Positions 15,813-60,451 of a stretch of DNA of 64,000 nucleotides are shown piece after piece. How positions within the stretch are numbered: position 1 is the first letter of the stretch; each line of letters starts with the position of its first letter. The DNA is taken from assembly GCA_963745835.1 (NCBI GenBank), contig CAVUZH010000022.1, positions 384,001 to 448,000 on the forward strand, in the 5' to 3' direction. The translations under genes and the position numbers were made by a program. Below the pieces are notes generated by a model, which had not been told where the DNA came from, did no database searches, and saw only the letters and a program-made list of their open reading frames with translations. The DNA is from an uncultured delta proteobacterium (GTDB lineage: Bacteria; Desulfobacterota; Binatia; UBA9968).

Positions 15813-15827
15813 TGGCATATTTCTTGC
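15813..15827 (+). promoter_or_regulatory. Sigma-54 -24/-12 promoter
   Basis: TGGCATATTTCTTGC (GG-N10-GC), intergenic, upstream of the BON gene. Confidence 0.75.
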
Positions 15828-15866
15828 CCCTAGTAATTTAATTACGACAGATCCCGGAGCGTTTTC

Positions 15867-16248
15867 ATGATCAGGAAATCACTGGCAGTGTTTATTGTTC
15901 CTGGCGATCGCAGCGGTTGCCTGCAACAGATCCGGTGATTCCGACAACAAAGCACCTACCCTCAGCGAAACGACAGTGATGGTGCGGAGCAACGCGGACC
16001 TCGAGAGTGCAGTTAAAGCGAAGTTCAAAGCCGACGAACAGTTGAGATCGGCGGATCTTGGCGTCAGCGCTAATTCGACTAACAATGAGATTACTCTCTC
16101 AGGGTCAGTTGAATCTGAGGCGTTGCGTTCCAAAGCAGTCGATCTGGCTAAGAGCGTCGATTCAGGATTGACCGTGAACGATCAAATCGAAGTAAAACCA
16201 AGTGGCCGCACCGCAACTGTTCTTCCAAACCAGCAGCACCATGGCTGA
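15867..16248 (+). CDS. BON-domain (OsmY-like) lipoprotein (indel in signal peptide near 15891)
   Basis: GGAG then ATG 15867 MIRKSLAV, continuing LFLAIAAVAC lipobox in the next frame; BON motif ITLSGSV..A..LAKSV..V.DQI. Confidence 0.8.
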
Positions 16249-17347
16249 ACGAGCTAAAATCAGATACGCCGTGGTCGGCCTCGGGCACATCGCGCAAGTT
16301 GCCGTCTTGCCTGCATTCGCTCACGCCCGCCAGAATTCCCAGCTCACCACCTTGGTGTCGGATGATCCGGTCAAGCATGAAAAACTCCGCAGTAAATACA
16401 AAATCCAACATAGTTACTCGTATGAGGAGTATGACAAGTGCTTGAGCAGCGGCGCTATCGATGCCGTGTATATCGCGCTGCCTAACAACCTCCACTGTGA
16501 CTTTACCGTGCGCGCGGCACGAGCCGGCATCCATGTTCTCTGTGAAAAGCCGATGGCGGTGACTGAAGATGACTGCGAGAAGATGATTTCGGCCGCCGAA
16601 AAGGGCGGAGTGAAGCTAATGATTGCCTACCGCCTTCATTTCGAGAAGGCCAATCTTGAAGCGGTCGAGATTGCGCGTTCCGGCAAACTAGGTGAGCCGC
16701 GATTCTTCTCGTCCGTGTTTGCAATGCAAGTAAAGGAAGATAACATTCGGCTGAAACGAGAGCTCGGCGGCGGCACGCTCTACGATATCGGCGTGTACTG
16801 CATCAATGCAGCGCGCTCCCTGTATCAGGCCGAGCCGTCGGAAGTCCACGCGTTCAGCATCAGCGGTAAAGACCCGCGCTTCGGGGAAATCGATGAGATG
16901 ACCGGCGCGGTTTTGCGTTTTCCCGAAGGGCGCTTAGCATCATTCACCTGCAGCTTTGGAGCCGCGGATGTATCGGCCTATGAGCTGGTCGGCACCGAGG
17001 GTAGCCTGCATGTTGAACCGGCTTACGAGTATGTTGGAGAGCTCAAGCACCGGCTCACCGTCAAAGGCAAAACCCGCGAACGGACTTTTTCCAGCCGTGA
17101 TCAATTTGCCCCGGAGCTAATCTATTTTTCCAACTGCATTATCAATAATGTCGATCCGGAACCATCCGGAGCGGAAGGATTGGCCGATGTGCGCGTTATC
17201 CGCGCACTATACCGTTCGGCGGAAATCGGCAGCGTCGTAGAACTGGAACCCTATATCAAACGGCAGAGACCGGGAATCGAACAGGAGATCAGCCGGCCTC
17301 CGGTAGACAAACCCGAGCTGGTAAACGTACAGAGCGCATCGGAGTAA
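16241..17347 (+). CDS. Gfo/Idh/MocA oxidoreductase, glucose-fructose-oxidoreductase-like
   Basis: YAVVGLGHIA, DAVYIALPN, HVLCEKPMA, GGGTLYDIGVY. Confidence 0.9.
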   Translation: MAERAKIRYAVVGLGHIAQVAVLPAFAHARQNSQLTTLVSDDPVKHEKLRSKYKIQHSYSYEEYDKCLSSGAIDAVYIALPNNLHCDFTVRAARAGIHVLCEKPMAVTEDDCEKMISAAEKGGVKLMIAYRLHFEKANLEAVEIARSGKLGEPRFFSSVFAMQVKEDNIRLKRELGGGTLYDIGVYCINAARSLYQAEPSEVHAFSISGKDPRFGEIDEMTGAVLRFPEGRLASFTCSFGAADVSAYELVGTEGSLHVEPAYEYVGELKHRLTVKGKTRERTFSSRDQFAPELIYFSNCIINNVDPEPSGAEGLADVRVIRALYRSAEIGSVVELEPYIKRQRPGIEQEISRPPVDKPELVNVQSASE

Positions 17348-17382
17348 AACAACCAATTGTCACTTAAGAATGGAGGAACGAT

Positions 17383-18035
17383 ATGCCTAATGCAACTCAG
17401 ATGATTCGTCAGGACCACAAGAAAGTCGAAGGGTTGTTTAAAAAATTTGAGCAGACCCAAGGGTCGCAAGCCAAACGCCGGTTGGCTGAGAATGCCATGG
17501 CTGAGCTCGAAGTTCATGCTGCTCTCGAGGAGGAAATCTTCTACCCCGCGGTGAAAAATGAAGTCGATGACGGCTCGTCGATGGTCCAGGAGGCGATCGA
17601 GGAACACCAAACCGTCAAACAACTGATCAGCGAGCTTAAGAGGATGGAAGAAGCGGACCAAGAATTCGAATCGCAATTCTCCCAGCTAATGGAAAATGTG
17701 CAGCACCATGTTGAGGAGGAAGAGAGCGAAATGTTGCCCAAGGTTGAAGAGAGCGAGCTCGATCTAAACTCGCTGGGTCAGCAGATGTCGCAAAGAAAGC
17801 AGGAAATGCAGAACGGCGGTCGCGCAACTAAGAAGGCATCGAGTGCCAGATCGCCGGAAGATCCAATGCCGGATCCCGCCGGAAACGCGCCGGTTCCAAG
17901 TCCACAGCAGCCCGGAAGTCCGCGGGCAAAAAGGCAGGTAGCAAGACTGCAGCGCGTAAGACCGGCAGCACGAAAAAGAGCACCGGGCGCAAGGCGACTA
18001 AAAAATCAGGAAGCCGCTCCAGGCGGCGAGCTTAA
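17383..18035 (+). CDS. Hemerythrin/HHE-domain protein with basic tail (tail in -1 frame after about 17852; in-frame reading ends at 18075)
   Basis: GGAGG RBS; DHKKV, HAALEEEIFYP, EEHQ, HHVEEEE motifs. Confidence 0.85.
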
Positions 18036-18161
18036 AAAAGAGGCACATTCCGCTAGCACTGCCGCCGATAAATAGCGCCCCAAAGCGGACAATCATCGAC
18101 TTGCGCCGCAGCCGACAATTTGGCTATAAGCGGTGATGAGTTCACTGTGAAAGGAGGATTT

Positions 18162-18716
18162 ATGGCTGATAAGCCTTTTTTGACCGATATCAAGACGCTC
18201 CGAGAGCGGGCGCGTCAACACATCGAACAAGGCGCCATCACGCCGGGTTACAAAGCCGATCGCGACACCGTCGTTAAACTACTCAATGAAGCGTTAGCGA
18301 CGGAGATCGTGTGCACACTGCGCTACAAGCGACACTATTACATGGCTTCGGGAATCCATGCTCAGGCAGTGGCCCAGGAGTTTCTCGAGCACGCCAACCA
18401 AGAACAGGGACATGCCGATCAAATCGCCCAGCGTATCGTTCAGCTCGGCGGCGCTCCTGACTTATCGCCCGATGGCCTAACGACCCGCAGTCACGCAGAG
18501 TATGTCGAAGGCGAAACCCTCCTCGACATGATTAAAGAGGATCTGGTAGCCGAGCGCATTGCCATCGACAGCTATCGGGAGATGGCGCACTATATGGGCG
18601 AAAATGACTCCACCAGCCGTCGATTGATGGAAGAGATCTTGGCGGTCGAAGAAGAGCACGCTGACGATCTCGTCACACTATTACAAGAGTTGGGCACGGA
18701 TCACGGATCGAAATAA
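18162..18716 (+). CDS. Ferritin-like/bacterioferritin-family protein
   Basis: AAGGAGG RBS; LNEALATE..Y..H, EQGHAD, EDLVAERIAI, EEEHADDL di-iron ligands. Confidence 0.9.
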   Translation: MADKPFLTDIKTLRERARQHIEQGAITPGYKADRDTVVKLLNEALATEIVCTLRYKRHYYMASGIHAQAVAQEFLEHANQEQGHADQIAQRIVQLGGAPDLSPDGLTTRSHAEYVEGETLLDMIKEDLVAERIAIDSYREMAHYMGENDSTSRRLMEEILAVEEEHADDLVTLLQELGTDHGSK

Positions 18717-18769
18717 AATACTAAACTGTTCAATCGGCTAGACAAACTCAACAGAAGAAAGGAACTACT

Positions 18770-19030
18770 ATGTTTGGATGGATTGGATGGATTATCTTCG
18801 GACTGATTGTCGGAATCGTCGGGAAGTTCTTGATGCCAGGGCGCGATCCCGGTGGATTTATCGTTACGATTCTGTTAGGCATTGCCGGCGCCTTGCTGGG
18901 CGGCTTCGTCGGGCGTGCTCTCGGGTTCTATCAAGAAGGGGAGCCAGCCGGCTTCATCATGGCGGTGATCGGTGCGATCATTTTGCTGGCGATCTATCGC
19001 GCGGTAGTCGGGCGACGGCGCACTGTTTAA
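18770..19030 (+). CDS. GlsB/YeaQ/YmgE (transglycosylase-associated) membrane protein
   Basis: WIIFGLIVG..LMPGRDPGG..GIAGALLGG..AVIGAIILL. Confidence 0.92.
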   Translation: MFGWIGWIIFGLIVGIVGKFLMPGRDPGGFIVTILLGIAGALLGGFVGRALGFYQEGEPAGFIMAVIGAIILLAIYRAVVGRRRTV

Positions 19031-19053
19031 CCGCGGCCGTTAACCCGTTCTTC

Positions 19054-19133
19054 GTTCGACGTTCAGGCTCAAGGCTCAATCGGTGACGGCTCTAAAAGGC
19101 TGACGTTTGAGCCTTGAACTTCTAACGTTCAAC
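19054..19133. repeat. Imperfect inverted repeat built of heptamer units; possible terminator or REP-like element
   Basis: Perfect core TCAAGGCTCAA (19069-19079) / TTGAGCCTTGA (19107-19117), just after the GlsB stop. Confidence 0.5.
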
Positions 19134-19198
19134 GCCCATAGCTTTCCAATTAGGCCTCCATCAAGTGGGTTTTCTGGCAGGCCATCGGATAATTTTGC

Positions 19199-20152
19199 AT
19201 GCTCAAAATCGGATATAAGCTGTCGAGCGAGGAGCATCGGCCACAGGATTTAATCGCTCAAGCACGGCGAGCCGAACAATGCGGATTCAGGTTCGCGATG
19301 ATTTCCGATCACTTTCATCCATGGATCGATGCGCAGGGACAGAGCCCGTTTGTATGGCCGGTGATTGGTGCGATCGCTCAAGTGACCAGCAAACTGCTGC
19401 TAGGCACCGCAGTGACTTGTCCGACCATCAGAATACATCCCGGCATCATTGCGCAAGCGGCGGCTACGGCCGCTTCCATGATGCCGGGGCGCTTCATCCT
19501 CGGTTTGGGAGCAGGGGAAAATCTTAATGAACATATCTTTGGGGATCGGTGGCCGCCGGTGCGCATTCGCCATGCCATGCTTAAGGAAGCCGTGGAAATC
19601 ATCCGCTTGCTTTGGCGCGGAAAGCAGGAAAATTTCTCCGGCGAGTATTACCAGGTAGAGAACGCGCGCCTCTATACCTTACCGGATGAGCTGCCACCAA
19701 TTGCACTCGCCGCCAGTGGCTCAAACGCGGCCAAGCTGGCGGCAGAAATCGGCGATGGTTTTGTCGGCACTACCCCCAATGCGGAGATAATCGATGTTTT
19801 CAATCGCTCGGCCGGCAGCGGAAAACCACGATACGGCGAGCTCACCGTCTGCTGGGCCGAAAACCAAAATCAAGCTGAGGAGACCGCGTACAAGGAGTGG
19901 CCGATCTCAGGACTGAGTGGGCCGCTGATGTCCGAGTTGGCGCTGCCGAATTATTTCGAACAAGCAGCCACTATGATCGACAAAGGCGCAGTGGCAAAAA
20001 CTGTCATCTGCGGACCCGATCCCGAACGTCACTGGGAAGCAATTCAGGAGTATGAGCGCGCCGGTTACGATCATGTTTTTGTCCATCAGGTGGGTGCCGA
20101 TCAGGAAGGCTTTTTTCAATTCTACGAGCGAGAGATTCTGCCGCGGCTCTAG
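19199..20152 (+). CDS. LLM-class F420-dependent oxidoreductase (G6PDH-like family)
   Basis: GYKLSSEE, SDHFHPW..QGQSP, GTAVTCP, GLGAGENLNEH. Confidence 0.88.
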   Translation: MLKIGYKLSSEEHRPQDLIAQARRAEQCGFRFAMISDHFHPWIDAQGQSPFVWPVIGAIAQVTSKLLLGTAVTCPTIRIHPGIIAQAAATAASMMPGRFILGLGAGENLNEHIFGDRWPPVRIRHAMLKEAVEIIRLLWRGKQENFSGEYYQVENARLYTLPDELPPIALAASGSNAAKLAAEIGDGFVGTTPNAEIIDVFNRSAGSGKPRYGELTVCWAENQNQAEETAYKEWPISGLSGPLMSELALPNYFEQAATMIDKGAVAKTVICGPDPERHWEAIQEYERAGYDHVFVHQVGADQEGFFQFYEREILPRL

Positions 20153-20565: not shown

Positions 20566-20580
20566 TGGCATATCGGTTGC
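20566..20580 (+). promoter_or_regulatory. Sigma-54 -24/-12 promoter
   Basis: TGGCATATCGGTTGC, 50 nt upstream of ATG 20631. Confidence 0.75.
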
Positions 20581-20630: not shown

Positions 20631-21419
20631 ATGCATCGAAAACTGTTGATTTTATCCGGTATCGTTTTTAGCGGTACGATTGCACTCAACGGCAATCTGG
20701 TATGGTCACAAACCAAAGGCTCGAGCGGGTCGCCGGGCCCTGCAGGACAGGAAAGTTCGGACAGACCGTCGAGCCAAAAGGGCAGCAGCGCGTCCTCGGC
20801 ACCATCAAGCAGTCAGGATAAAAGTGGTTCTGCTACAGGATCAAGCAAATCCGGTAGCGGGAGTCAGATGGATCGGGCAGGAGGCAGCGGCAGCATGAGC
20901 GGACAATCCAGCGCGCGAGGTATGGGCGGACAATCCAGCGAAAACATCAAGCAGGTTCAGGAAGCGCTAAAAAACAAGGGACACGATCCAGGTCCGGCAG
21001 ACGGAGTGATGGGACCCAAAACGCAGCAAGCTCTGCGTGCCTTTCAAAAAGAGAGTGGTATGCAGGCAACTGGACGCCTCGACGATAAGACCGCCAGCGC
21101 ACTTGGAGTGGATGCTTCGGGTAGCGGAAAAGGTTCCTCGTCCAGCGGAGCTTCGTCGAGCAGCGACAAAAGCTCGTCGGGAAGCGGAGCTTCTTCATCG
21201 GGGCGTAGCTCGTCGAGCGAGAAGTCATCCTCTGGCGGGTCCTCTACTAGCCCGTCAAGCAGTGGATCTTCCGGCAGCTCATTGGGCACCGGCGGTTCAT
21301 CGGGGAGCGACGCTTCGGGCAGCGGCTCATCTAAAAGCGGTTCCGGCGGATCGTCGAGTGGCGGCTCATCCAAGAGTGATTCCAGCAGCGGATCGAGCAG
21401 TGGCTCTTCCGGCAAATAA
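20631..21419 (+). CDS. Secreted peptidoglycan-binding (PG_binding_1) protein with Ser/Gly-rich low-complexity arms
   Basis: AAGGAG RBS; signal peptide; VQEALKNKGHDPGPADGVMGPKTQQALRAFQ..TGRLD. Confidence 0.88.
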   Translation: MHRKLLILSGIVFSGTIALNGNLVWSQTKGSSGSPGPAGQESSDRPSSQKGSSASSAPSSSQDKSGSATGSSKSGSGSQMDRAGGSGSMSGQSSARGMGGQSSENIKQVQEALKNKGHDPGPADGVMGPKTQQALRAFQKESGMQATGRLDDKTASALGVDASGSGKGSSSSGASSSSDKSSSGSGASSSGRSSSSEKSSSGGSSTSPSSSGSSGSSLGTGGSSGSDASGSGSSKSGSGGSSSGGSSKSDSSSGSSSGSSGK

Positions 21420-21572: not shown

Positions 21573-22661
21573 TCACGGAGCTTTCAAATGGAGCAGCTTG
21601 CGAGTGTAGCCTTCAAGCTCCGCGGCCCGGCGCGACGCCGTGTGTTCAGACAGAACGCGCTCACGGGCTCGTTGCCCGATGTGGTCACGTTCTTGGGCGC
21701 TTAGTTCGAATAGGTATTCGAGCGTCTTTTCCGGTGAGTCGGCTACCAGAATCTCATCCCCCACCTTGAAAAAAGCATCCAGCCCCTCCCACCAATCGCT
21801 GATAATCGGGCAACCACAGGCAGCCGCTTCAAACAGCCGGATACTTGGTGAATAACCGGCGTCAACCATATTGGCCCGAGTTATATTGAGAGTAAAAGTT
21901 TGTTGGTTGTAAAAAGCTGGATGCGCGCATGGCGCCAGATGCTCGATGCGCTCAACATTTGTAGGCCACTCGATGGAACTGGGATACTGCGGGCCGGCAA
22001 CCACCATGCGAGCATCGGAGCAACGGCTGGCCGGATCGAGCAGCAGCTCTTGCAGACCCTGTTGGCGATCGGCGCTGTAAGTTCCCATGTAGCCCAAATC
22101 CCACCGCTTTGGCAGCGCCAGCGGTCTGTATAGATCGGCATCGACAGCGCAATACAGCGCTCGCGCCATCGGTGCGCCATAGTGCAGTTCCAGCTGCTCT
22201 AGGATCGGCCCTCCGGTAAACGAGAGATACAGCTGGTATTGTGGGATTAGGTCGGCGGAAAGGTAAAAAGAATCGCCGCGCTCCACAGAAGCCAGAGTCA
22301 CCGGCGTGTCGATATCATAAAAGGCCGTGATGCCGCGGGCGGTTTCCATGACCCACCGGCCAAGCTCAATTCCGTCTGGGACATACGAGCCTACCACCAC
22401 CAGATCGGCGTCGCGCACCATATCGTAAAAACGTTTCCTGAGTTGGTCCAAGCTGCGGTAGAGAAACGTTCCCCCCCGACGCGCATGGATTTGATCGCGA
22501 GCGGCGGCATACCAGGGCATATCGCGTTCGAGAAATAAAACCTGATGGCCGCGCTGTTCGAGTCCGCGCACCAGAGCTCGGTAAGTGGTCGCATGTCCAT
22601 TGCCCCAGGACGAAGTAATCGAAAGACCGAGGATCACAATGTTGAGCGGTTGAGTAGTCAT
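21573..22661 (-). CDS. CgeB-family (GT-B) glycosyltransferase
   Basis: SSWGNGHATTYR, FYDIDTPVT, SPSIRLFEAAACG..ISD, HT..RA. Confidence 0.88.
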   Translation of the reverse strand: MTTQPLNIVILGLSITSSWGNGHATTYRALVRGLEQRGHQVLFLERDMPWYAAARDQIHARRGGTFLYRSLDQLRKRFYDMVRDADLVVVGSYVPDGIELGRWVMETARGITAFYDIDTPVTLASVERGDSFYLSADLIPQYQLYLSFTGGPILEQLELHYGAPMARALYCAVDADLYRPLALPKRWDLGYMGTYSADRQQGLQELLLDPASRCSDARMVVAGPQYPSSIEWPTNVERIEHLAPCAHPAFYNQQTFTLNITRANMVDAGYSPSIRLFEAAACGCPIISDWWEGLDAFFKVGDEILVADSPEKTLEYLFELSAQERDHIGQRARERVLSEHTASRRAAELEGYTRKLLHLKAP

Positions 22662-23731
22662 AGACTCTGCAGCAACGATTCCAGCTCAGCGGCCCGGTGC
22701 GCATAAGTATGCTCGCCGAGGATTCGGCGCAAAGCAGCTTGCCCGATCTCTTTAGCTTGGGCTCTCGTTAAATGACGCAGCTGTTCACCGACCTCGTCGC
22801 CATCGTTGGCAACTAAACACTCGCGGTCCGGCTCGAGAAAATCTTCGATGCCATCCCAAGCATCGGTAATCAGACAGCCGGCGGCGCCGGCGACCTCGAA
22901 CAGACGAGTCGGCGGAGAGTAGCCGCAGCGCGCCATGCTTTCCCGGCAGACATTCAGAACGGCCATGGGCGTTGAATTGAAGGCGTTGTGTGCTGCGGTA
23001 TAGACGTGGCCAAGATAGGCGACATTGGCATAAGCCGGCACCGCATCGTCCCAACCGCTGCCACCGAGAATAAAGCGCATGCGTGGATTGGCTTGGGCCG
23101 GTTTGAAAAAGAATTCGAAGACCCGCGCCTCGCGATCCGGCAGGCGATTGCCGAGAAAGCTCAGCGCGCCGTCATAGCTCGAATCGGCAGGCGCGGGATG
23201 ATGCGTGCGGGGGTCCAACGCGTTGTATATTGGAAAGCATCGCTGCGCGCCAAGTTGCTTATAACTCTGCACCACCGCATCGCCACCGCCATAGGTAAGA
23301 ACCAGATCGTAGAGCGGAATCAGCGAGCGAAACGGATGGGCCTCGTCCCGACCGATTCGTTCCAGTGTCGCCGCGGCATCGACATCCCAAAAGGCAACAA
23401 TGCTGTCAGGGCGGCGCAACTCCAGAACAGTTTGTTCCAGGAGCGCATCGAAGACACCGACGCCGCTGGCCTTCACCAACAAATCCGATTCGCGCGCGGC
23501 TTTCTTGACCATCTCGATAACGGCTGACTCCCCGTCAACCGCATACACCACCGTCTGCGCGTAGGCCGTTTCGGTGAGATCTCGGTGCCGCTGCCGGTCC
23601 CAAGCATCAGGCTCATAAAAAACAATCTGATGCCCCCGCTCAAAGAGCGCGCTCAAAATTCCCCGGTAATAGGTCGCCGCGCCGTTCCAGTACGCCGACA
23701 GCAAACTCGATCCGAAAAACGCAATCTTCAT
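22658..23731 (-). CDS. CgeB-family glycosyltransferase
   Basis: SAYWNGAATYYRG, GNRLPDRE, PTRLFEVAGA, HTYAHRA. Confidence 0.88.
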   Translation of the reverse strand: MKIAFFGSSLLSAYWNGAATYYRGILSALFERGHQIVFYEPDAWDRQRHRDLTETAYAQTVVYAVDGESAVIEMVKKAARESDLLVKASGVGVFDALLEQTVLELRRPDSIVAFWDVDAAATLERIGRDEAHPFRSLIPLYDLVLTYGGGDAVVQSYKQLGAQRCFPIYNALDPRTHHPAPADSSYDGALSFLGNRLPDREARVFEFFFKPAQANPRMRFILGGSGWDDAVPAYANVAYLGHVYTAAHNAFNSTPMAVLNVCRESMARCGYSPPTRLFEVAGAAGCLITDAWDGIEDFLEPDRECLVANDGDEVGEQLRHLTRAQAKEIGQAALRRILGEHTYAHRAAELESLLQSL

Positions 23732-24867
23732 AGGTGCTTCTCGGGCGGTTGCTCCATCGCGTGATCTGATGGGACCGGCGAGTCGATGCGGTGGTAGATC
23801 TCGATCAGTTCGTCGAGCCGGTGGGCGCAGGTATGACGCTGCAGAATTGTCTTGCGCCCATGCGCCGACAATCGGCCGGCGAGTTGAGGATCGGCGAGCA
23901 GACGCTGCAGCTGCCGCTTCATCTCCGCACCGTCACGGGCGACCAGATAATCCTCGCCAGGGGTGAATAGATGTTCGCTGTCTTCCCAGGGCGCGCAAAC
24001 CAGAGGAATGCGGCAGGCCAGCGCTTCAAATGGACGAATGGTCGGAACACCGGGCAAAGCTTTGACGTAGGGCCGGCGCGGGATGTGAACCGTGACTCGG
24101 AAGCGGGCCAATGTGGCGGGCACTTGGAAGTTGGGCAACCAGCCGCCGTACTCGATACACGCGGCTGAAAGCGCTGCCAATGCTTCTGCCGGATAACGGA
24201 CGCCGTAAACGCGCGCTTTGAGACCCAGCGCTTTTACCGGCTCAAGAAGAAACTCATAGAGTTCCGCCGTGCGTTCTTCATCGCCCCAGTTGCCGATCCA
24301 GACCAGATCGCCCTCTTTTTCCTCATCGGGCAGCGGCATGAAAACTCTCGTGTCCGCGGCTTCATGCCACACCCAAACACGCTTGGCACAATTGCGCGAG
24401 CGATAAATTTCCGCAATTGCTTTACCGAAAACGAGAACACCATCATAGTCCGCCAAGTCGTAGGCCGCCATTTTCTCGGGTTCGGTAACGGACCGATGAT
24501 GCGTGTCATGAAACAGCAAGCGGTAATCGCCCTTGATTCTATGGTGCGCGCCGATTCGCCGGACCAAGGCCGGGTCATTCCATTCGTGAACGATGACGAG
24601 ATCGATCCGATCGAGCGCGCGATCCAGATCGAGAGTTGCCGGATCGTAAAAGGTGCTGCGCAAGCCGGGATAGATCTGTCGGAATGCCTCGACCGGCGCT
24701 TGGCCGTGCTCTCGCACTAAATTTGTACGACTCCATCCGTCGGCCGGTTCAAAGATCCGCAGCGTATGGCCGCGCCGCTGAACCTCCCAGGCGACACCGC
24801 GCAAGAAGTGCGCGTTGCCGTGATTCCAGTCCGACACCAGCGAATGAATAAAAAGAGCGATATTCAT
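23728..24867 (-). CDS. CgeB-family glycosyltransferase
   Basis: SDWNHGNAHFLRG, HDTHHR, PTIRPFEALAC, HTCAHR. Confidence 0.88.
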   Translation of the reverse strand: MNIALFIHSLVSDWNHGNAHFLRGVAWEVQRRGHTLRIFEPADGWSRTNLVREHGQAPVEAFRQIYPGLRSTFYDPATLDLDRALDRIDLVIVHEWNDPALVRRIGAHHRIKGDYRLLFHDTHHRSVTEPEKMAAYDLADYDGVLVFGKAIAEIYRSRNCAKRVWVWHEAADTRVFMPLPDEEKEGDLVWIGNWGDEERTAELYEFLLEPVKALGLKARVYGVRYPAEALAALSAACIEYGGWLPNFQVPATLARFRVTVHIPRRPYVKALPGVPTIRPFEALACRIPLVCAPWEDSEHLFTPGEDYLVARDGAEMKRQLQRLLADPQLAGRLSAHGRKTILQRHTCAHRLDELIEIYHRIDSPVPSDHAMEQPPEKHL

Positions 24868-25994
24868 GACGGGTATTCGCCGTGGGTTGTTTCTTCCGAG
24901 AACAGGCCCCGTTGCGCCCGCAGCAGTTTGGCGTAGATCTCCAAATATGCCCGCGCCATCCGCTCCGGTGAAAACGAATCCGCCCGTTTTCTCGCGCGCC
25001 GGGAGAAATCCTCGCGTAAGGATGGGTTTGCAATCAATTCGACAAGCGTCGCGCGAATATGCTCGGGATCGTCCGGTCGAATAAAAAGCGCGGCGTCATG
25101 CCAGATTTCGCGCAGGCTTTCAGTGTCCCCCAAAACCACAGCGCAGCCGCAGAGCGCCGCCTCCAGCGCGGATAAGCCAAACGGCTCGTAGCGAGCCGGC
25201 AAAATAAAAATCGCCGCGCGGCGAAACCACTGCCCGAGCATTTCCGGATCGAGGCGGCCTAGTAAATTCGGACCCTCCACAAGCGCCTGTTTTCCGTCGG
25301 GCGCGCGGCTCTCTCCGGCGGCATAAATCGGCCAGGGAACCTTTCCGACGATCGAGTTCAGGCTCGCAATGTTCTTGGCCTCGTCCCACAGGCGACCGGC
25401 GGTAAAGATGTAGTCTTCCTTTTTCCCGGGAGCGAAGCGCGCGCCGCTGCGACCGTTGTAAATTGGCTCTGCTGCGGCAAAGCGTCCATAATGTTTTTCC
25501 AAGGACGACAGCATCGAGCGGCTAGGCGCCGTCACTAAATCGGCGCCTTGCAGACCCAATCGCACGGCTTCCCGGTAAGATCGCCATTCCGGGCCAGGCG
25601 GCGCGCCTTTGACGGCTTCGAACCACGAGTAAACACACGAGTGGCCGACCACCAGAACCGGAACATTCCAGGGAATGGCGCCGTGGCTATATTGATTTAG
25701 ATGGATCAGGCTTGGTTGAAAGCGCGCTTCTAGATCGAGCAACCATTGTCCGGCGGCTTTCACATCGCTGCACGGCTCGTTCATCCACTCGAGCTTGTAG
25801 CTGCTCTCGCGCAGCTCGACGTTCTGCAAATCGCAAATCAATGCTCGCTCGCCGCGCTCGAGCTGCCTTCCCATGGTTGCCAGCACCACGTTGACGTCTC
25901 TCTTGGCCAGTTCCCGGCAAAGCTCCAGCGAGTATTGCCAAACTCCGCCGATGGGATCGGCGGTCATCAGTATCGGTCGCGTCGGTAACACCAC
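24864..25994 (-). CDS. Glycosyltransferase family 4
   Basis: MTADPIGGVW, AGRLWDEAKN, YEPFGLSALEAA. Confidence 0.9.
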   Translation of the reverse strand: MVLPTRPILMTADPIGGVWQYSLELCRELAKRDVNVVLATMGRQLERGERALICDLQNVELRESSYKLEWMNEPCSDVKAAGQWLLDLEARFQPSLIHLNQYSHGAIPWNVPVLVVGHSCVYSWFEAVKGAPPGPEWRSYREAVRLGLQGADLVTAPSRSMLSSLEKHYGRFAAAEPIYNGRSGARFAPGKKEDYIFTAGRLWDEAKNIASLNSIVGKVPWPIYAAGESRAPDGKQALVEGPNLLGRLDPEMLGQWFRRAAIFILPARYEPFGLSALEAALCGCAVVLGDTESLREIWHDAALFIRPDDPEHIRATLVELIANPSLREDFSRRARKRADSFSPERMARAYLEIYAKLLRAQRGLFSEETTHGEYPS

Positions 25995-26012
25995 TCGCAG
26001 TATTCCTCCCGT

Positions 26013-27065
26013 TCAATCAGAGACATTCTGCCGGTAAATTTCGTCGATTACTTCAGCCACCAGGTGCGCGGGTTCAATCCGCGCATCAAAGGTCGGGTCG
26101 ACGCTCAGCTGCTCGGCCCAGGCAACCGCGGCGCGCCCGCCCCACGGATCCGGGGGCTGGTCGAGAAGCATCCGACTGGTGCCTTGAAAACGTTCGGCAC
26201 GAAAATCGTAGAAAGAACCGCCGACGTTTTTTACGGACAAACCGCCTGCGGTGCCGAAGAAAGATGCGCTAATCAACGCATCGCGTCCCGCCGGCAGTCG
26301 CCAGGAGCAGGCCAGGTTGACGGTCGCGCCGGTCGTCAGATCCAGGCGCGCCAGAGCATAATCTTCGAGAGCGCCTGCCCGCCCCGGCACCGGTCTGCCC
26401 TGGCTGAACAAGCGGCTCGAAACTTTCTCAACGACAGGGAAATCGAGCATCCATAACGCCAGATCAATCAGGTGAATGCCCAGATCGATCATGCAACCGC
26501 CACCGGAAAATTTGCGGTCGTAGTACCAAGCTTTGTCTGGCCCATACGCATTATGAAAGACAAGATCAGCAACATAGATTGTGCCGATCTCCCCTGCGCT
26601 GATCATCTGTTTGATTTTTTGAACGCCGCGAACAAAGCGATAGGACAGGTCGACAGCTAAGAGCCGGTTCACCAGCCGCGCAGCCCGAATCACCCGCGCC
26701 GTCTCATCGGCGCTTCTTCCCAGCGGCTTCTGGCAGAAAACGGCCGTGTTGCTCTGCAGGGCGGCGATAGCTTGCTCGGCATGTAACGCCGTCGGCGTGG
26801 CGATCACCACACCATCGAGCTGCAATTCGAGCAAAGCATCCAGTGACGGCGCCGCCACTGCACCGGGAATTTGCGCGGCAACCTCGCTTGCGGCAGCGGT
26901 ATCGAAATCCGCCACCGCCGCGACTTGGACCGCGCCGCTTTCACAAATCGATTGCAGACGATGGCGGCCGATCCAGCCGACGCCGAGAAAACCCACTCGC
27001 GGCCGTAGTGAGGCGTCAGCAATGGGCAAGCAAGGTTCGGCCGATTTATCAAAGTGTCTAGTCAC
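26013..27065 (-). CDS. Gfo/Idh/MocA NAD(P)-dependent oxidoreductase
   Basis: GTG 27065 overlapping the upstream stop; GFLGVGWIG, IATPTALH, FCQKPL, GGCMIDLGIH. Confidence 0.88.
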   Translation of the reverse strand: MTRHFDKSAEPCLPIADASLRPRVGFLGVGWIGRHRLQSICESGAVQVAAVADFDTAAASEVAAQIPGAVAAPSLDALLELQLDGVVIATPTALHAEQAIAALQSNTAVFCQKPLGRSADETARVIRAARLVNRLLAVDLSYRFVRGVQKIKQMISAGEIGTIYVADLVFHNAYGPDKAWYYDRKFSGGGCMIDLGIHLIDLALWMLDFPVVEKVSSRLFSQGRPVPGRAGALEDYALARLDLTTGATVNLACSWRLPAGRDALISASFFGTAGGLSVKNVGGSFYDFRAERFQGTSRMLLDQPPDPWGGRAAVAWAEQLSVDPTFDARIEPAHLVAEVIDEIYRQNVSD

Positions 27066-27660
27066 TAATTTCTTCCGTGTTGTTGATGCAGAGAACCCGC
27101 GGCCCGTCCTGCTGCATGGCAACGATGCTGATCGATGCCGGACTGACTTCGAGCCGAAGCACAAGATCGAGCGGCATGCCCAAACAATGCGCCAGCGCGC
27201 CGCGGATAACGTCGGCATGACTGATCAGCGCAACGGTCATCGCCGGGTGGCGCCGGCACAGGAGCTCCATCAGGGCAAGCACACGGGCTTGAACCTCGAT
27301 CATCAGCTCGCCACCAGGAATGCGCGTGCAGCTACGCAGCGAATTGAAATCGCGCCATTGGGCGATGCCGCGCAAGTCGTCGAAGCTCTGCCCGCTCCAT
27401 TCGCCATAGTCGATCTCGTCGAGCTGCGGTGCGATCGTGACAGTCTCGCCAGAAAGCTCCGCCAAGAACTCTGCGGTCTCCCGCGCTCTTGGTTGAGGAC
27501 TGCTGTAGATTTTACCGATCCCCAGCTGCTTCAAGGAATGCACCAAGCGTTGGCCCTGAACTTTGCCGGCGGCGCTCAGATGCACGTTCGCATCCCGGCC
27601 GGCAAGACGACTTGGAACGCAGTCGGTGGCAGCGTGCCGGACAAAGATCAACCGTGTCAT
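27058..27660 (-). CDS. Histidine phosphatase family protein
   Basis: ATG 27660; FVRHA, YSSP..RARETA, EIDYGEW, ISHAD. Confidence 0.88.
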   Translation of the reverse strand: MTRLIFVRHAATDCVPSRLAGRDANVHLSAAGKVQGQRLVHSLKQLGIGKIYSSPQPRARETAEFLAELSGETVTIAPQLDEIDYGEWSGQSFDDLRGIAQWRDFNSLRSCTRIPGGELMIEVQARVLALMELLCRRHPAMTVALISHADVIRGALAHCLGMPLDLVLRLEVSPASISIVAMQQDGPRVLCINNTEEISD

Positions 27661-46455: not shown

Positions 46456-46496
46456 CGGCATAGCTTACGCATTTAGCTCGAAGCAGCTTGATAAAT

Positions 46497-51850: not shown

Positions 51851-51865
51851 TGGCATCGCCATTGC
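51851..51865 (+). promoter_or_regulatory. Sigma-54 -24/-12 promoter
   Basis: TGGCATCGCCATTGC, about 98 nt upstream of ATG 51963. Confidence 0.72.
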
Positions 51866-51962: not shown

Positions 51963-53069
51963 ATGAAAATCGCCCAGGTCGCGCCTCTCTATGAAAGTGT
52001 GCCGCCACGAACTTACGGCGGTACTGAGCGCATCGTTTCCTATCTTACCGAGGAATTGGTGGCGCAGGGACACGAGGTCACGCTCTTCGCCAGCGGCGAT
52101 TCGGTCACCGCGGCGCAACTTATAGCGGCGCGCAAGCGTGCCTTGCGGCTCGACAATGTATTTGATCCGCTACCTCATCATTACGTCATGCTCGAAGAGG
52201 TATTCGAGAGGGCGTCTCGGTTCGACATTATTCACTTTCATACCGATTACCTTCATTTCCCGCTTGCCCGGCGGCACCCAATTCCGCACCTGACAACCCT
52301 TCATGGCCGACTCGATATTGCCGACCTGATGCCCGTGTACAAAAAGTTTAGCGAAATGCCGGTTGTGTCGATCTCGAATGCGCAACGCAAACCTCTTCCG
52401 CGCGCCAACTGGCAACAGACGATTTATCATGGCTTGCCTCTGGAGCTTTATGATTGCGGTGAGAAACCCGGGGATTATCTCGCGTTCATTGGACGAATCT
52501 CACCGGAAAAGCGGCTCGATCGCGCAATCGAAATCGCCGCTCGTTCGGGCATGAGACTTCGCATCGCCGCCAAAACCGATGCCGCCGATCATGATTACAT
52601 GGAGCAGGTGATCAGACCCATCCTGAGCAATTCGTCGGCGGAGTTCATCGGCGAGATCGGCGACAAGGACAAAAAAGGATTTCTCGCGAATGCTTATGCC
52701 TTGCTATTTCCGATCGATTGGCCGGAACCGTTCGGCCTGGTGATTATCGAGGCGATGGCATGCGGCACTCCGATTATCGCCTATCGCTGTGGCTCGGTAC
52801 CGGAGTTGATCCAGGATGGAATCACGGGTTACATCGTCGATGACATCGAAGGTGCCCTTCACGCGCTTCGTAAGATTCCAGCTTTTGACCGCCGGCGCTG
52901 CCGCCGGGTTTTCGAAGAACGTTTTAGCGCGTCTCGCATGGCGCAAGATTACCTGAATGTCTACCGCCGCGTAATCAAAGCTTCAGCTGATCACGATGCT
53001 CGCATCGCCCTGGCGGCGCTCGACTCCGATCCCCTGGAACGTGCGATCAACTACCAGGTCGAGAAGTGA
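51963..53069 (+). CDS. Glycosyltransferase family 4
   Basis: VPPRTYGGTE, GRISPEK, WPEPFGLVIIEAMACGTP. Confidence 0.92.
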   Translation: MKIAQVAPLYESVPPRTYGGTERIVSYLTEELVAQGHEVTLFASGDSVTAAQLIAARKRALRLDNVFDPLPHHYVMLEEVFERASRFDIIHFHTDYLHFPLARRHPIPHLTTLHGRLDIADLMPVYKKFSEMPVVSISNAQRKPLPRANWQQTIYHGLPLELYDCGEKPGDYLAFIGRISPEKRLDRAIEIAARSGMRLRIAAKTDAADHDYMEQVIRPILSNSSAEFIGEIGDKDKKGFLANAYALLFPIDWPEPFGLVIIEAMACGTPIIAYRCGSVPELIQDGITGYIVDDIEGALHALRKIPAFDRRRCRRVFEERFSASRMAQDYLNVYRRVIKASADHDARIALAALDSDPLERAINYQVEK

Positions 53070-56869: not shown

Positions 56870-56884
56870 TGGTATGTGTTTTGC
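56870..56884 (+). promoter_or_regulatory. Sigma-54 -24/-12 promoter
   Basis: TGGTATGTGTTTTGC, about 96 nt upstream of ATG 56980. Confidence 0.6.
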
Positions 56885-56979: not shown

Positions 56980-57282
56980 ATGGAGAATTATGAAGGAGCT
57001 TTTGGCGGGCAATCGCAACAGCCCACCAGGACTGAGGATCAGTTTACAAAATCGGTGGAAAAATATACCGCCGCGATACCGTCTTCCGCTTTCTTAGGAG
57101 TCGCGCTCGGGGCGATGGCGCTGTCACTGGCGATGCAGATCGGCGGTCAGGGCAAGTGGGGGAACTTCATCGGACAGTGGGTTCCCACCTGGTTGATCAT
57201 CGGACTCTATAACAAGCTGGTGAAGCTTGAGGGTCATGATCAGAGCGATCGAGGTGATGGCTATTCGCGCTACAGCAGCTAA
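56980..57282 (+). CDS. Conserved small membrane protein
   Basis: AAGGAGG RBS; TAAIPS..FL..FIGQWVPT..GLYNKLVK. Confidence 0.78.
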   Translation: MENYEGAFGGQSQQPTRTEDQFTKSVEKYTAAIPSSAFLGVALGAMALSLAMQIGGQGKWGNFIGQWVPTWLIIGLYNKLVKLEGHDQSDRGDGYSRYSS

Positions 57283-57441
57283 GCCGCTACTGATATCAAG
57301 CGGCTCGGCCCGTCGTAGGGGCCGGGCCGCAAAACACTCGAGTACAACTCTGACCATGCACGATAAACTTCGCATCGGTGATCACGCGTCCTCCTCTCAT
57401 AGAGCCGATAACGCGAATTCTCTGGCAGAGTCTCTACCACG

Positions 57442-58590
57442 ATGAAAGCCGATCTCGCCTTGAACCGGAAGCGGCCAGCAAGGCGGCTTGGCGCGATCGT
57501 GTCTCCGGATCCAGTCGAGTCAGCCAAGGCTGCGAGCCTGCGCTACGTTACAGATGATCAGCCAGGTATTTCCCGGCGAAGAAGCGGCGCAGCCTTCCAA
57601 TACATTGATCCCTCAGGCAAAGTCATCCGTGATCCGGAAGAATTGCAACGCATCAAATCTTTGGCGATACCGCCGGCCTGGCGTGAGGTTTGGATCTGTC
57701 CGATACGCAATGGCCACCTGCAAGCGACCGGGCGCGATGCTAAGGGCAGAAAACAGCATCGTTATCACCCCCGCTGGCGCGAGATCAGAGATGAAAACAA
57801 ATATGGTCGTATTCTGGCTTTCGCGAAAGCTCTGCCGCTCATTCGTCAAAGAGTCGACAACGACCTTCGGCTGCCCGGGCTCCCGCGCGATAAAATCCTC
57901 GCAACGGTGGTAAGGCTGCTCGAAACCAGCCACATTCGTGTCGGCAACGAGGAGTACGCTCGGCAAAATAAATCTTTTGGCCTGGCAACCCTGAGGAATC
58001 GCCACGTCAATGTCTCCGGTTCGACGATCAGTTTCGAGTTTCGCGGCAAGAGCGGCGTCGAGCATGCGTTGGATATCAATGATCGTCGCTTGGCAAAGAT
58101 CATCAAGCGCTGCCAGGATCTGCCGGGTTATGAGCTGTTTCAGTACATCGACGATGTTGGCGAGCGTCGCACCATCGACTCCACCGATGTTAACGAGTAC
58201 ATCCGCCAGATTGCCGGTGAAGAATTCAGCACTAAGGATTTCCGCACCTGGGCCGGAACGGTGTTGGCCGCACGAGCATTGCAGGAGTTCCAAAGCGCTG
58301 CGTCTGATGCGGAAAGCAAACGCAATATAGTTCAAGCGATTGAATCCGTCGCCAAGAAACTGGGCAATACCAAAGCGGTGTGCCGGAAATGCTATATTCA
58401 CCCGGCGGTGATTCAGTCCTATTCCGATGGAACTCTGTTGCGCGCTTTACGCCGGCGGCTCAAAAAGGAAATCAACGACTCGCATGAACTCGAACCGGAA
58501 GAGGCCGCTGTGCTGAGGCTGCTGAAGGCTGGAGTTACCTCGGATAGTAAAGCAGCGCAAAAATGCTCAGCCAATGGAGCGAGAGGCTAG
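57442..58590 (+). CDS. DNA topoisomerase IB (bacterial/poxvirus type)
   Basis: IPPAW, GRDAKGRKQ.RYH, RVGNEEY, FRGKSG, KDFRTW, LGNT.AVCRKCY (catalytic Tyr). Confidence 0.95.
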   Translation: MKADLALNRKRPARRLGAIVSPDPVESAKAASLRYVTDDQPGISRRRSGAAFQYIDPSGKVIRDPEELQRIKSLAIPPAWREVWICPIRNGHLQATGRDAKGRKQHRYHPRWREIRDENKYGRILAFAKALPLIRQRVDNDLRLPGLPRDKILATVVRLLETSHIRVGNEEYARQNKSFGLATLRNRHVNVSGSTISFEFRGKSGVEHALDINDRRLAKIIKRCQDLPGYELFQYIDDVGERRTIDSTDVNEYIRQIAGEEFSTKDFRTWAGTVLAARALQEFQSAASDAESKRNIVQAIESVAKKLGNTKAVCRKCYIHPAVIQSYSDGTLLRALRRRLKKEINDSHELEPEEAAVLRLLKAGVTSDSKAAQKCSANGARG

Positions 58591-58633
58591 CGCTCGATTT
58601 GCGCAGCAAAGTGATGATAGATAACCGCATGAG

Positions 58634-60256
58634 ATGATTCCGTCCGCACCGATTGTTTCAGCAGCACACCCCGAAGCCACCTGGTGGCAAAAGGGTTCGA
58701 TCTATCAAATTTATCCGCTGTCATTCAAAGACAGCAATGGTGACGGCAGCGGTGACCTGCGCGGAATTATCATTCGGCTTGATTACTGCCGCTGGCTCGG
58801 GATCAATGCGGTCTGGCTATCGCCGATCTATCCTTCGCCGATGATTGATTTCGGCTATGACATATCAAATTTCACCGATATTCATCCGCTGTTTGGCACC
58901 CTCAGTGATTTTGATGCGCTGGTCAGCGAGGCGCGGCGTTTAAACCTAAAAATCCTTTTGGATTACGTGCCCAATCACAGCTCGGACCAACACTCCTGGT
59001 TTCTCGAGTCCAGGTCGTCCCGGAACAATCCCTACCGCGCCTGGTACATCTGGCGCGATCCAGCGCCCGGAGGCGGGCCGCCCAACAATTGGTTGAGCGC
59101 ATTCGGCGGCAGCGCTTGGGAGTGGGATGAAAACACCGGGCAATACTATTTGCATTCCTACCTTAAAGAGCAGCCCGATCTAAACTGGCGCAGTCCTGAC
59201 GTCGAGCAGGCGATGATCGACGTGCTGAGATTCTGGCTTGATCGAGGCGTCAGCGGTTTCCGAGTAGATTCAATCGCTCACTTGATGAAAGATACTCAGT
59301 TTCGAGACAACCCCTTGAATCCCGATTGGGACCCAGCCACCGGTCCGTATTTTCGCTATCTGCCGGTCCACTCGCGGGATCATCCGGACACCGCGAACGT
59401 CATCCGCCAGATACGGCAAGTCATCGATGGATACGAGGATTGCGTGATCATCGGTGAGGCCTACCTATCTTTGGAGCGCACGGTTGCCTATTACGCCGCC
59501 GGAGTCCATCTGCCTTTTAACTTTGCCTTGATCACCAGTCCCTGGACCGCTCGCGAGGTGCATCGCATAATCACAACTTACGAGTCACTGCTCGGACCTG
59601 ATCAGTGGCCCAATTGGGTGCTGGGAAATCATGACCGTCACCGGATTGCCACTCGCGTCGGCAGGGCTCAGGCGCGCGTAGCGGCAATGCTTCTGCTCAC
59701 CTTGCGTGGCACACCGACGCTTTATTACGGTGATGAAATTGCGATGCTGGATGTTTCGATACCGGCTGAGCTGGTCAAGGATCCCTGGGAATTAAACGTT
59801 CCTTCCCTCGGCTTGGGGCGAGATCCCGAGCGCTCACCGATGCAATGGGATTCGACCAATCACGCTGGCTTCAGCACCGCCATTCCGTGGTTGCCGGTGG
59901 CCAGTGATTTCAATCGCTTCAACGTTGCCATCGAGAGTCAGGAAGCCGACTCAGTGCTCACTCTATTTCGCCGCTTGATCGCGCTTCGAACCGAAAAGCC
60001 GGCACTGCACAGCGGCTCCTATGGAGAACTTTTGTGCGAGGATCATGTGCTATGTTACAGCCGCCAGTCCGGGTCGGAGCGTTTTTTGATCGTGCTAAAT
60101 TTCACCGCGGAGCCTAAAATGTTTGAGCACCGCGGTCTCCACGGCAGAGTAATTCTAACCACCGCTCTCGATCGTAATAGTGAACCTGTTGGCGAAAAAC
60201 TTCGACTGCGCCCTGATGAAGGAGTCATTGTCGAAGTAGAACATCCAAACGTTTGA
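58634..60256 (+). CDS. GH13 alpha-glucosidase / oligo-1,6-glucosidase family
   Basis: YQIYP.SF.DSNGDG.GD, DYVPNH, QPDLNW, GFRVD, GE, NHD. Confidence 0.93.
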   Translation: MIPSAPIVSAAHPEATWWQKGSIYQIYPLSFKDSNGDGSGDLRGIIIRLDYCRWLGINAVWLSPIYPSPMIDFGYDISNFTDIHPLFGTLSDFDALVSEARRLNLKILLDYVPNHSSDQHSWFLESRSSRNNPYRAWYIWRDPAPGGGPPNNWLSAFGGSAWEWDENTGQYYLHSYLKEQPDLNWRSPDVEQAMIDVLRFWLDRGVSGFRVDSIAHLMKDTQFRDNPLNPDWDPATGPYFRYLPVHSRDHPDTANVIRQIRQVIDGYEDCVIIGEAYLSLERTVAYYAAGVHLPFNFALITSPWTAREVHRIITTYESLLGPDQWPNWVLGNHDRHRIATRVGRAQARVAAMLLLTLRGTPTLYYGDEIAMLDVSIPAELVKDPWELNVPSLGLGRDPERSPMQWDSTNHAGFSTAIPWLPVASDFNRFNVAIESQEADSVLTLFRRLIALRTEKPALHSGSYGELLCEDHVLCYSRQSGSERFLIVLNFTAEPKMFEHRGLHGRVILTTALDRNSEPVGEKLRLRPDEGVIVEVEHPNV

Positions 60257-60436
60257 GCAATCCCCTAATCCAAACGCACCGATGGGCAAGCTCGCGTGCT
60301 CTGATCATCTACGGCAAACTTCTCGGCATGCGTCGCGCTGCTCTCAGAGTTCGGCATTTGCAACCCTCGGACTGCCGCTCGGTTCGCTGTCCCAGTTTTG
60401 CTAAAACTGGTCGAGGAAAAACAGGCCATTCTCCCC

Positions 60437-60451
60437 TGGCATAGGCTTTGC
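60437..60451 (+). promoter_or_regulatory. Sigma-54 -24/-12 promoter, preceded by palindrome CCAGTTTT-gct-AAAACTGG (60392-60410)
   Basis: TGGCATAGGCTTTGC, about 76 nt upstream of GTG 60527. Confidence 0.72.

Follow-up and report, generated by a model that had tools for sequence, protein, structure and literature searches.

A predicted sigma-54 regulon of stress-type genes and its candidate activator in an uncultured Candidatus Binatia genome

What reads a short element that recurs, almost unchanged, in front of eight gene units in one stretch of DNA from a soil lineage, and what purpose could these units share? The stretch analysed here (the window) covers 64 kb of the genome of an uncultured Candidatus Binatia, on the contig called C22 in the coordinates below, and carries the element TGGCAT-N5-TTGC upstream of stress-type genes, a glycan cluster and several smaller units. 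A sequence-only reading of the window had taken these elements for −24/−12 promoters of sigma-54 (RpoN) that serve a general stress or dormancy response, possibly through a dedicated RpoN paralog. Our analysis indicates that the sites are almost certainly sigma-54 promoters. It also makes likely, though well short of certain, a scheme in which one RpoN and one self-regulating activator switch about 50–60 promoters across the genome, including all eight in the window, as a stress or dormancy programme. The specificity would come from a palindromic box upstream of the promoters together with its activator, neither of which appeared in the earlier reading.

Sigma-54 promoter sites in the window and across the genome

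The source genome comprises 7.28 Mb and is 97.1% complete with 9.33% contamination; the genomes that match it best, at 98% and 95%, are from Candidatus Binatia. All seven exact sites reported earlier lie where the sequence-only reading had placed them and on the strands it gave, the TGGTAT variant at 56870 on the forward strand is likewise present in the sequence, and six of the seven exact sites read TGGCATA as claimed. The claimed distance of 13–127 nt from site to gene was measured as ~13–126 nt at all eight promoters, every one of which is intergenic. The putative promoters are listed below, each with the distance from its conserved C to the first start codon.

15813..15827, +: sigma-54 −24/−12 promoter of the BON/oxidoreductase/hemerythrin/ferritin-Dps-like/GlsB-like/luciferase-like monooxygenase (LLM) unit; ~39 nt (BON lipoprotein ATG at 15867)
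20566..20580, +: sigma-54 promoter of a secreted peptidoglycan-binding protein; 50 nt
38619..38633, −: sigma-54 promoter of the glycan cluster; 126 nt
38961..38975, +: uncertain, weak candidate (7.7 bits) for a ninth sigma-54 site, directed towards the DUF3182 unit; it shares the boxes at 38832-38920
42333..42347, +: sigma-54 promoter of a small CxxC..CxxC protein; 13 nt
46441..46455, −: sigma-54 promoter of the 46347-43478 unit; 93 nt
51851..51865, +: sigma-54 promoter of a GT4 glycosyltransferase (51963-53069); 97 nt
56870..56884, +: sigma-54 promoter, TGGTAT form, of the 100-aa protein/topoisomerase IB/alpha-glucosidase unit; 95 nt
60437..60451, +: sigma-54 promoter of the phosphoribosyltransferase/erythromycin-esterase-family unit; 75 nt

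Seven exact matches in the window compare with a mean of 0.18 and a maximum of 1 in 100 dinucleotide shuffles, and no exact match within the window falls in coding sequence or on the wrong strand. Relaxing the pattern gives a single further match, TGGCAA-N5-TTGC at 7110+ (18.8 bits), inside the NrfD/ActC gene. The window is also dense in sites, with 8 where 1.2 are expected from the genome average. Across the genome the element occurs 85 times at spacer 5, compared with 12–30 times at spacers 2–4 and 6–9. Judged against calls from our own gene caller, 82 of the 85 spacer-5 matches lie outside confidently called genes, as opposed to 26 of 141 spacer controls in a genome that is 78% coding, and a same-strand gene lies within 400 nt of 56 of the 85 compared with 9 of the 141, so that the enrichment between genes and in the correct orientation holds genome-wide. 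An opposite-strand gene call follows 16 of the 85 matches; in at least two cases, both at sites in the window, this reflects a gene that the caller missed. A weight matrix finds 140 intergenic sites of at least 15 bits, with the consensus TGGCAT-n5-TTGC[GT] and with GG and GC present at 98–99%. The first downstream genes were scanned by Pfam (98 genes plus 5 neighbours, with 34 sites lacking a fetched locus or a called gene) and include the textbook sigma-54 targets amtB, P-II, pilB and pilT.

The general sigma-54 consensus is YTGGCACG-N4-TTGCW (PMC2725144). TGGCACG-N4-TTGC occurs just four times in this genome, and the TGGCATA form makes up six of the seven exact window sites compared with 39 of the 85 genome-wide. 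Both figures would suit a dedicated second RpoN with altered TGGCATA specificity that runs the stress genes, which is the paralog raised as a possibility in the earlier reading. However, a single rpoN was found among 24 candidates scored, in the usual lptB-rpoN-hpf-ptsN locus, and in the 61 genomes of the order 58 carry exactly one copy, three carry none and none carries two. The nitrogen and pilus promoters of amtB, P-II, pilB and pilT also have the TGGCAT/TGGTAT form, indicating that this form is the ordinary RpoN consensus of the lineage. The rpoN counts and the shared promoter form speak strongly against a paralog as the source of specificity, and we regard this explanation as extremely improbable. 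Most genomes of families f1 and f2 show enrichment of TGGCAT-N5-TTGC, but family f3 shows hardly any; the latter (relatives G038-G060) has rpoN, with no CsbD and no homologue of the activator described below at E ≤ 1e-120.

The palindromic box and its candidate activator

Sigma-54 activators are numerous in this genome, with 33 PF00158 matches and ~24 full activators. An 18-bp palindrome, TGTCYCA-N4-TGRGACA, emerged from a dyad screen and from expectation maximization (EM) over the 245 nt preceding each of 132 promoters. Its EM log-likelihood was 119, compared with 16–36 in six random control sets, and the motif was recovered from random seeds. A box of at least 10 bits is present at 46 of the 132 promoters but at 88 of 2436 background regions, and the N4 spacer alone is enriched (46 hits, compared with 4–10 at other spacers). 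The boxes lie mostly 37–140 nt upstream of the promoter, singly at 41 of 53 promoters, and the distances recur every 10.5–10.75 nt (55 hits, jitter-null p = 0.0004), the helical phasing predicted for a protein that has to face the polymerase when bound. With background subtracted, box-bearing promoters are estimated at ~50–60 genome-wide. All eight window promoters have a box, with its centre at the distance given.

15724..15743: box, 79 nt upstream of 15813; 12.7 bits; found in the same place by motifs trained without the contig or without the genome
20478..20497: box, 78 nt upstream of 20566; 12.5 bits
38832..38851: distant box, 208 nt upstream of 38633, in a divergent intergenic region; 10.7 bits
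42231..42250: box, 92 nt upstream of 42333; 10.5 bits; picked by one of three held-out models
46495..46514: box, 49 nt upstream of 46455; 12.6 bits
51718..51737: box, 123 nt upstream of 51851; 12.7 bits
56759..56778: box, 101 nt upstream of 56870; 12.7 bits
60387..60406: box, 40 nt upstream of 60437; 14.4 bits

A second conserved, half-similar block lies ~36 nt beyond the box at 38832..38851. Among held-out weak promoters the box is found upstream of 33 of 285 and downstream of 8 of 285, and 9 of 877 coding look-alikes carry it; promoters in the loci of relatives give 19 of 42 upstream compared with 4 of 42 downstream. A model trained without contig C22 (120 seeds) placed all eight window promoters above the 90th percentile of the background. 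No second shared palindrome stood clearly above the controls in 67 box-negative promoters (log-likelihood at most 39.5, with controls reaching at most 26.6 and 36.3), and NmpR-type, NtrC-type and NifA-type spacings showed no clear enrichment at the promoters. An exact pattern combining box and promoter had 2 matches in 201 genomes of the class and none here, and is too strict to inform.

The candidate for the protein that reads the box is encoded 7.7–9.0 kb left of the window.

C22:374965-376317, −: candidate master activator, 450 amino acids (aa), REC-AAA+-HTH

Pfam recognizes the REC, Sigma54_activat and HTH_8 domains in this NtrC-type protein, the GAFTGA motif is present, and the protein stays under the cut-offs of all named NCBIfam equivalogs listed (the best is AtoC, 447 compared with 714). 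The gene has its own sigma-54 site and box, and glgE, treS-mak and glgB lie behind it. In six genus relatives the activator is 96–100% identical, compared with 57–97% for the neighbouring genes. Of 36 genomes of the family, 29 have a homologue at E ≤ 1e-120, compared with none of the 24 genomes of families f2 and f3, and 106 of 201 genomes of the class have one at E ≤ 1e-140; in a metagenome scan with the activator, 4 of 78 loci exceeded 60% identity.

The box and this activator family occur together. A box lies within 400 nt upstream in 27 of 30 homologue loci, compared with 1 of 29 loci of other activators. Motifs were also learned de novo from DNA upstream of the activator, with no sequence from this genome or genus and with genome-wide counts taken at a 10% background threshold: the motif from 31 loci of other genera recovered all eight window boxes and 51 of the 132 promoters, and the motif from 11 loci of the activator's own clade recovered six of the eight and 47 of the 132. 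The third position of the half-site follows the recognition helix, being G in 33 of 34 cases for the SRSS clade and T in 36 of 38 for the SLS clade. On this comparative evidence the activator very probably binds the box. The alternative, that many local activators serve the promoters and the box is a statistical by-product or the site of a repressor or architectural protein, would accommodate the ~24 encoded activators and the degeneracy of the boxes, and box hits of at least 10 bits in the 64 kb number 15 where ~7 are expected by chance. It sits poorly, however, with the strict N4 spacer, the helical phasing and the upstream-only enrichment, as well as with the selectivity of the box for one activator family and the covariation of half-site and helix, and we consider it very improbable.

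The sister clade and other activators of the genome gave further observations. In the sister (SLST) clade a TTTC-type box usually stands between a weaker sigma-54-like site and the activator gene, 23–69 nt ahead of the latter, a position that suggests negative autoregulation, whereas the SRSS box is usually upstream of the promoter. Within this genome, a split activator paralog with an SLSS helix stands between two PaaA/PaaC-like genes (C14:389214+ and 394782+) that have TT-type boxes at their promoters, which agrees with the relation between helix and half-site. C12 and C19 share an identical activator block. At C25:9658- and C25:12008+ an identical sigma-54 promoter with a 61-aa gene forms an inverted duplicate around an activator gene. 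An activator at C14:77816 that appeared to lack a helix-turn-helix (HTH) domain was considered as a global activator and rejected: it contains a frame break with the HTH in another frame, and its two orthologues have open frames of 444–464 aa. Two further frames without HTH (L166 and L168) lack a canonical GAFTGA or are possibly truncated.

Physiological role of the predicted regulon

PhyR-NepR-EcfG is a known general stress system, and BON/OsmY, YihY and glycogen/trehalose genes are members of general stress responses. The genes behind the motif here include three copies of CsbD, a long catalase KatE, DUF4142, BON, hemerythrin, SRPBCC, YihY, holin-X, YflT, PRC-barrel, USP and CBS proteins, and glgX. 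The box is present at 15 of 20 promoters whose first gene is of stress type, at 39 of 112 others and at none of 15 named non-stress targets, amtB, P-II, pilB and pilT among them, the classes having been chosen after the annotations were known. CsbD occurs in all 14 genomes whose best activator hit belongs to the SRSS clade, compared with 5 of 16 that have the sister clade alone, although these genomes are kin and not independent; 27 candidates were scored per genome, and six CsbD-bearing genomes gave no activator hit.

The usual stress sigma factors were sought among 19 matches to sigma-70 region 2 (PF04542), of which 15 were scanned against NCBIfam, the other four being open frames of 108–239 aa, one with the region-2 Pfam match alone. 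RpoD and RpoH pass their cut-offs, two RpoD-like paralogs fall below the RpoD and RpoS cut-offs and the rest are of the extracytoplasmic function (ECF) type. None of the 15 reaches the cut-off for RpoS or SigB/F/G, and PhyR has no match in the genome at E ≤ 1e-20. The dedicated sigma-70-family factor by which a general stress response is defined is thus absent from the 15 of 19 matches scanned. The two RpoD-like paralogs, 510–520 aa long (C22:379943-381511 and C15:142005-143534), both lie behind sigma-54 promoters, with boxes of 14.1 and 8.5 bits and RpoS scores of 235 and 254 against a cut-off of 379 bits, and from their position they could form a second tier of the regulon.

In the proposed mechanism the promoters would be read by the genome's sole RpoN, and the phosphorylated NtrC-type response regulator would bind TGTCYCA-N4-TGRGACA on one helix face and use ATP to open the waiting sigma-54 complex. 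By driving its own promoter it would create positive feedback, and hence a switch, and it would also drive the two RpoD-like sigma-70 paralogs as a second tier. The output would be a stationary-phase, starvation or dormancy programme comprising CsbD, KatE, Dps-like ferritins, BON lipoproteins, glycogen/trehalose enzymes (glgE-treS-glgB and treZ-type) and cardiolipin synthase, together with DNA-maintenance enzymes, the cell-coat glycan cluster and an alternative respiratory chain, and the regulon would stand in for sigma-S, sigma-B or EcfG. Physical binding, the start sites, the kinase with its signal and induction by general stress are predicted parts of this mechanism. We judge a general-stress or dormancy role of the regulon to be reasonably probable.

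Several results weigh against this reading. The boxes are degenerate, with 19 GG, 19 GT and 5 TT half-site pairs, which suggests that a sister activator may share some promoters, and the box of the glycan cluster lies 208 nt from its promoter. An earlier run that left out the contig (25 seeds) settled on an off-axis optimum and recovered four of the eight window sites at 8 bits. The covariation of helix and half-site is one split on a quick tree and hence one event, and in distant families many homologues lack an upstream box (14 of 24 class-level loci score below 9 bits). A census of stress genes independent of the motif, with promoters assigned by an operon rule, found a promoter for 7 of 28 listed genes (8 with the miscalled BON gene of the window), a proportion well above the 194 of 6251 for all genes. 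By gene, the census gave CsbD 3 of 3, ferritin-like proteins 3 of 8, BON 1 of 12 (2 with the window gene), Ku 0 of 4 and OtsA 0 of 1. DUF892/YciF was not found in the genome, and the main ku has a sigma-70-like promoter both here and in relatives. Motif conservation ahead of orthologs is complete for the glycan cluster, whose promoter scores at least 21 bits in seven of seven orthologous loci and is near-invariant amid diverging flanks, with a box of at least 9 bits 206–228 nt upstream in all seven. It is only partial for CsbD and katE: 12 of 30 CsbD loci, a minority, have a correctly oriented sigma-54 site within 250 nt and none has one on the opposite strand, and 6 of 20 katE loci have a site nearby (6 of 9 at 78% identity or more, 0 of 11 among the distant ones). 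The claim of the sequence-only reading that the lineage runs its general stress response through sigma-54 therefore stands in part: many stress-type genes lie behind the sites and RpoS, SigB and PhyR were not found, but the census indicates that sigma-54 governs much of the stress gene set and not all of it. Membership of Ku in the regulon is unsupported for the main copy; among ku loci, a site of at least 13 bits within 1.5 kb was present at 2 of 19 from the family and at 0 of 9 from family f3. A CBS gene that bears a promoter precedes the Ku paralog at C5:115885 by 234 nt, and the two may be co-transcribed.

The targets also include hemerythrins, a cytochrome c' and the sucAB-complex III-caa3 operon, so that a low-oxygen role stays a live rival: the same wiring might serve a low-oxygen or energy-limitation regulon (NmpR- or DosR-like). 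A CBS protein is another box- or promoter-bearing target of this kind, and the activator's sister clade adjoins a FixL-like haem PAS kinase, whose homologue in this genome matches FixL haem-domain structures (E 5e-28). In Myxococcus xanthus, NmpR drives CBS, USP, cbb3 oxidase and hemerythrin genes in hypoxia, and like the activator here it is an autoregulated NtrC-like protein with a palindromic site and dispersed sigma-54 promoters, its targets including CBS, hemerythrin and oxidase genes (PMC11841059). The NmpR site, GCGCA-N5-TGCGC, occurs in tandem pairs, whereas TGTCYCA-N4-TGRGACA is mostly single, and NmpR bound seven promoters compared with the ~50–60 predicted here (PMC11841059). At the 132 promoters the NmpR site is unenriched, with 4 matches where 2.2 are expected (one mismatch) and 23 where 21.8 are expected (two mismatches). 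The two USP promoters lack a box, and CsbD, KatE, Dps-like, storage-sugar (glycogen/trehalose) and topoisomerase IB genes lie outside the NmpR set as described (PMC11841059). In family f9, the kinases next to the activator's own (SRSS) clade have their best match in a PAS-PAS kinase encoded 17 kb right of the window (C22:464940), which has no match to isolated FixL haem domains. Pattern searches for kinase and haem-PAS motifs gave no match. A low-oxygen regulon is on balance unlikely.

Another alternative is a developmental programme for a resting cell, with a cyst or spore-like coat, in place of a reversible stress response. The 17-kb glycan cluster with its four PF13524 glycosyltransferases, the several peptidoglycan (PG)-binding proteins, the two downstream sigma-70 paralogs and the positive feedback of the activator are all features that such a programme could use, and sigma-54 activators of the Nla28 type run starvation development in M. 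xanthus (PMC9765219). Against it, the glycan cluster, judged by its first gene at E ≤ 1e-100, was found only in the genus (in 6 of 7 relatives from the genus and in 0 of 53 from outside it), whereas the activator is family- and class-wide, and most targets are generic protective proteins; we consider development improbable. Nla28 does resemble the stress or dormancy regulon proposed here in that one sigma-54 activator governs a large starvation response and resistant cells, but it uses tandem 8-bp direct repeats and mostly intragenic promoters in fruiting-body development (PMC9765219), whereas here an inverted repeat accompanies intergenic promoters of classic stress-marker genes.

The targets of the EcfG response and of the sigma-S and sigma-B responses (PMC3162934, PMC9912610) overlap with those here in CsbD, KatE, YflT and ferritin/Dps-type proteins; in Bacillus cereus, KatE, CsbD, YflT and bacterioferritin are SigB-dependent (PMC9912610). 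Unlike those responses, the Binatia regulon would depend on sigma-54 and an ATP-dependent activator, no such sigma factor having been found, and Ku and OtsA lie outside the direct regulon. The Rrp2-RpoN-RpoS cascade of Borrelia likewise has a sigma-54 activator driving a sigma-70-family gene (PMC4014564), in the place of which this genome has two RpoD-like paralogs; these fall below the RpoS cut-off, however, and the stress genes carry sigma-54 promoters directly. DVU3305 of Desulfovibrio vulgaris is a sigma-54 response regulator labelled 'general stress response', but it controls a local two-operon regulon (PMC4641369), whereas the sites here are dispersed genome-wide. A literature search found nothing on sigma-54 control of CsbD/KatE-type genes or on regulation in Binatia, and the main text of a 2025 survey (PMC12316311) does not contain 'general stress', 'Binat', 'CsbD' or 'catalase', although its supplements may list such genes.

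The regulon would thus represent a known type of control, sigma-54 with an enhancer-binding activator, in an undescribed use, as a genome-wide stress or dormancy programme of a soil lineage in which none of the usual stress sigma factors was found. More tentatively, and with somewhat less than even confidence, we propose that this Binatia soil family runs a fourth general-stress/dormancy architecture: a lone phosphorylated ATPase activator, bistable through positive feedback, would be the master switch on sigma-54 for 50–60 promoters and would also turn on two RpoD-like sigma factors and an alternative respiratory chain, and a one-residue change in its recognition helix would have separated it from a FixL-coupled hypoxia sister regulon. 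If the stress or dormancy reading is true, the survival programme of Binatia gains a regulator, a binding site and a target list, and sigma-54 with a single activator, off until ATP is spent, can take charge of the classic general-stress genes in place of a competing stress sigma factor. The scheme can be tested without culturing; in soil metatranscriptomes the box-bearing genes could report on dormancy or stress, and the paired change of helix residue and half-site would be a clean natural case of regulon rewiring.

Genes behind the window promoters and neighbouring observations

The gene content of the window was assigned by Pfam, with NCBIfam for part of it.

1..14744, +: end of sucA, sucB, alternative complex III and caa3-type oxidase operon (Pfam)
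15867..20152, +: stress unit of BON lipoprotein, Gfo/Idh/MocA oxidoreductase, hemerythrin-domain protein, ferritin/Dps-like protein, 86-aa PRK10457-like protein and luciferase-like monooxygenase (Pfam, NCBIfam, sequence)
20631..21419, +: secreted PG_binding_1 protein, 262 aa (Pfam)
21573..38492, −: glycan cluster (17 kb) with two NAD epimerases, Zn dehydrogenase, inositol-phosphate synthase, five glycosyltransferases (four PF13524), nucleotidyltransferase, methyltransferase and phosphatases (Pfam, NCBIfam)
42361..42552, +: zinc-ribbon-like CxxC..CxxC protein, 63 aa (sequence)
43478..46347, −: unit of a 190-aa protein, holin-X family, DUF3618 and YihY/BrkB family (Pfam)
51963..53069, +: GT4 glycosyltransferase (Pfam)
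56980..60256, +: unit of a 100-aa protein, topoisomerase IB and alpha-glucosidase (Pfam)
start probably 60527, +: phosphoribosyltransferase/erythromycin-esterase-family unit (Pfam)

The BON lipoprotein gene (15867-16248) has a frame break near 15900, between the signal peptide and the BON domain, which is probably an assembly error; splits in several activator genes elsewhere point the same way. The operon at the left edge of the window has a sigma-54 promoter 2.3 kb left of the window (C22:381724+, 23.4 bits) with a weak box of 8.5 bits. Its alternative complex III and caa3-type oxidase part, at 2594-14744 after sucAB, is complete, and actA has the activator gene immediately upstream of it in relatives G020 and G028.

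The CxxC..CxxC gene at 42361-42552 has two paralogs in the genome, at C3:1269675+ and C15:213828-, none with a Pfam match. In all three genes (63–65 aa) the ATG lies exactly 13 nt after the GC of the sigma-54 site, a geometry that fits a transcription start ~12 nt downstream of the GC and is too tight to hold a ribosome-binding site. The 42361 gene and its two paralogs are thus probably transcribed as leaderless sigma-54 messages.

Sixteen RNA runs contain about one-fifth of the words of window positions 15700-21500, and four soil or rhizosphere runs were examined as contigs. Contigs of relatives in these four runs cover the 15813 and 20566 units, although contigs cannot show starts or rank genes. 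RNA depth goes up in the bins after 20566 in all four runs, a weak hint, and a further rise, at 15765, falls at the border of the sequence by which the runs had been selected.

The RpoD-like paralog of the C15 type often adjoins the activator's sister clade in relatives. In the usual arrangement rpoS follows pcm-nlpD; at C14:545822-547188 a pcm-nlpD pair is present without rpoS behind it, and in relative G018 an nlpD homologue directly follows the activator. Upstream of the activator in several genomes lies a gene of a 130–160 aa family without a Pfam or NCBIfam match (one copy at L081:11014-11496), with paralogs at C1:62621, C19:312544, C20:164296, C25:17011, C20:159678 and C8:94028.

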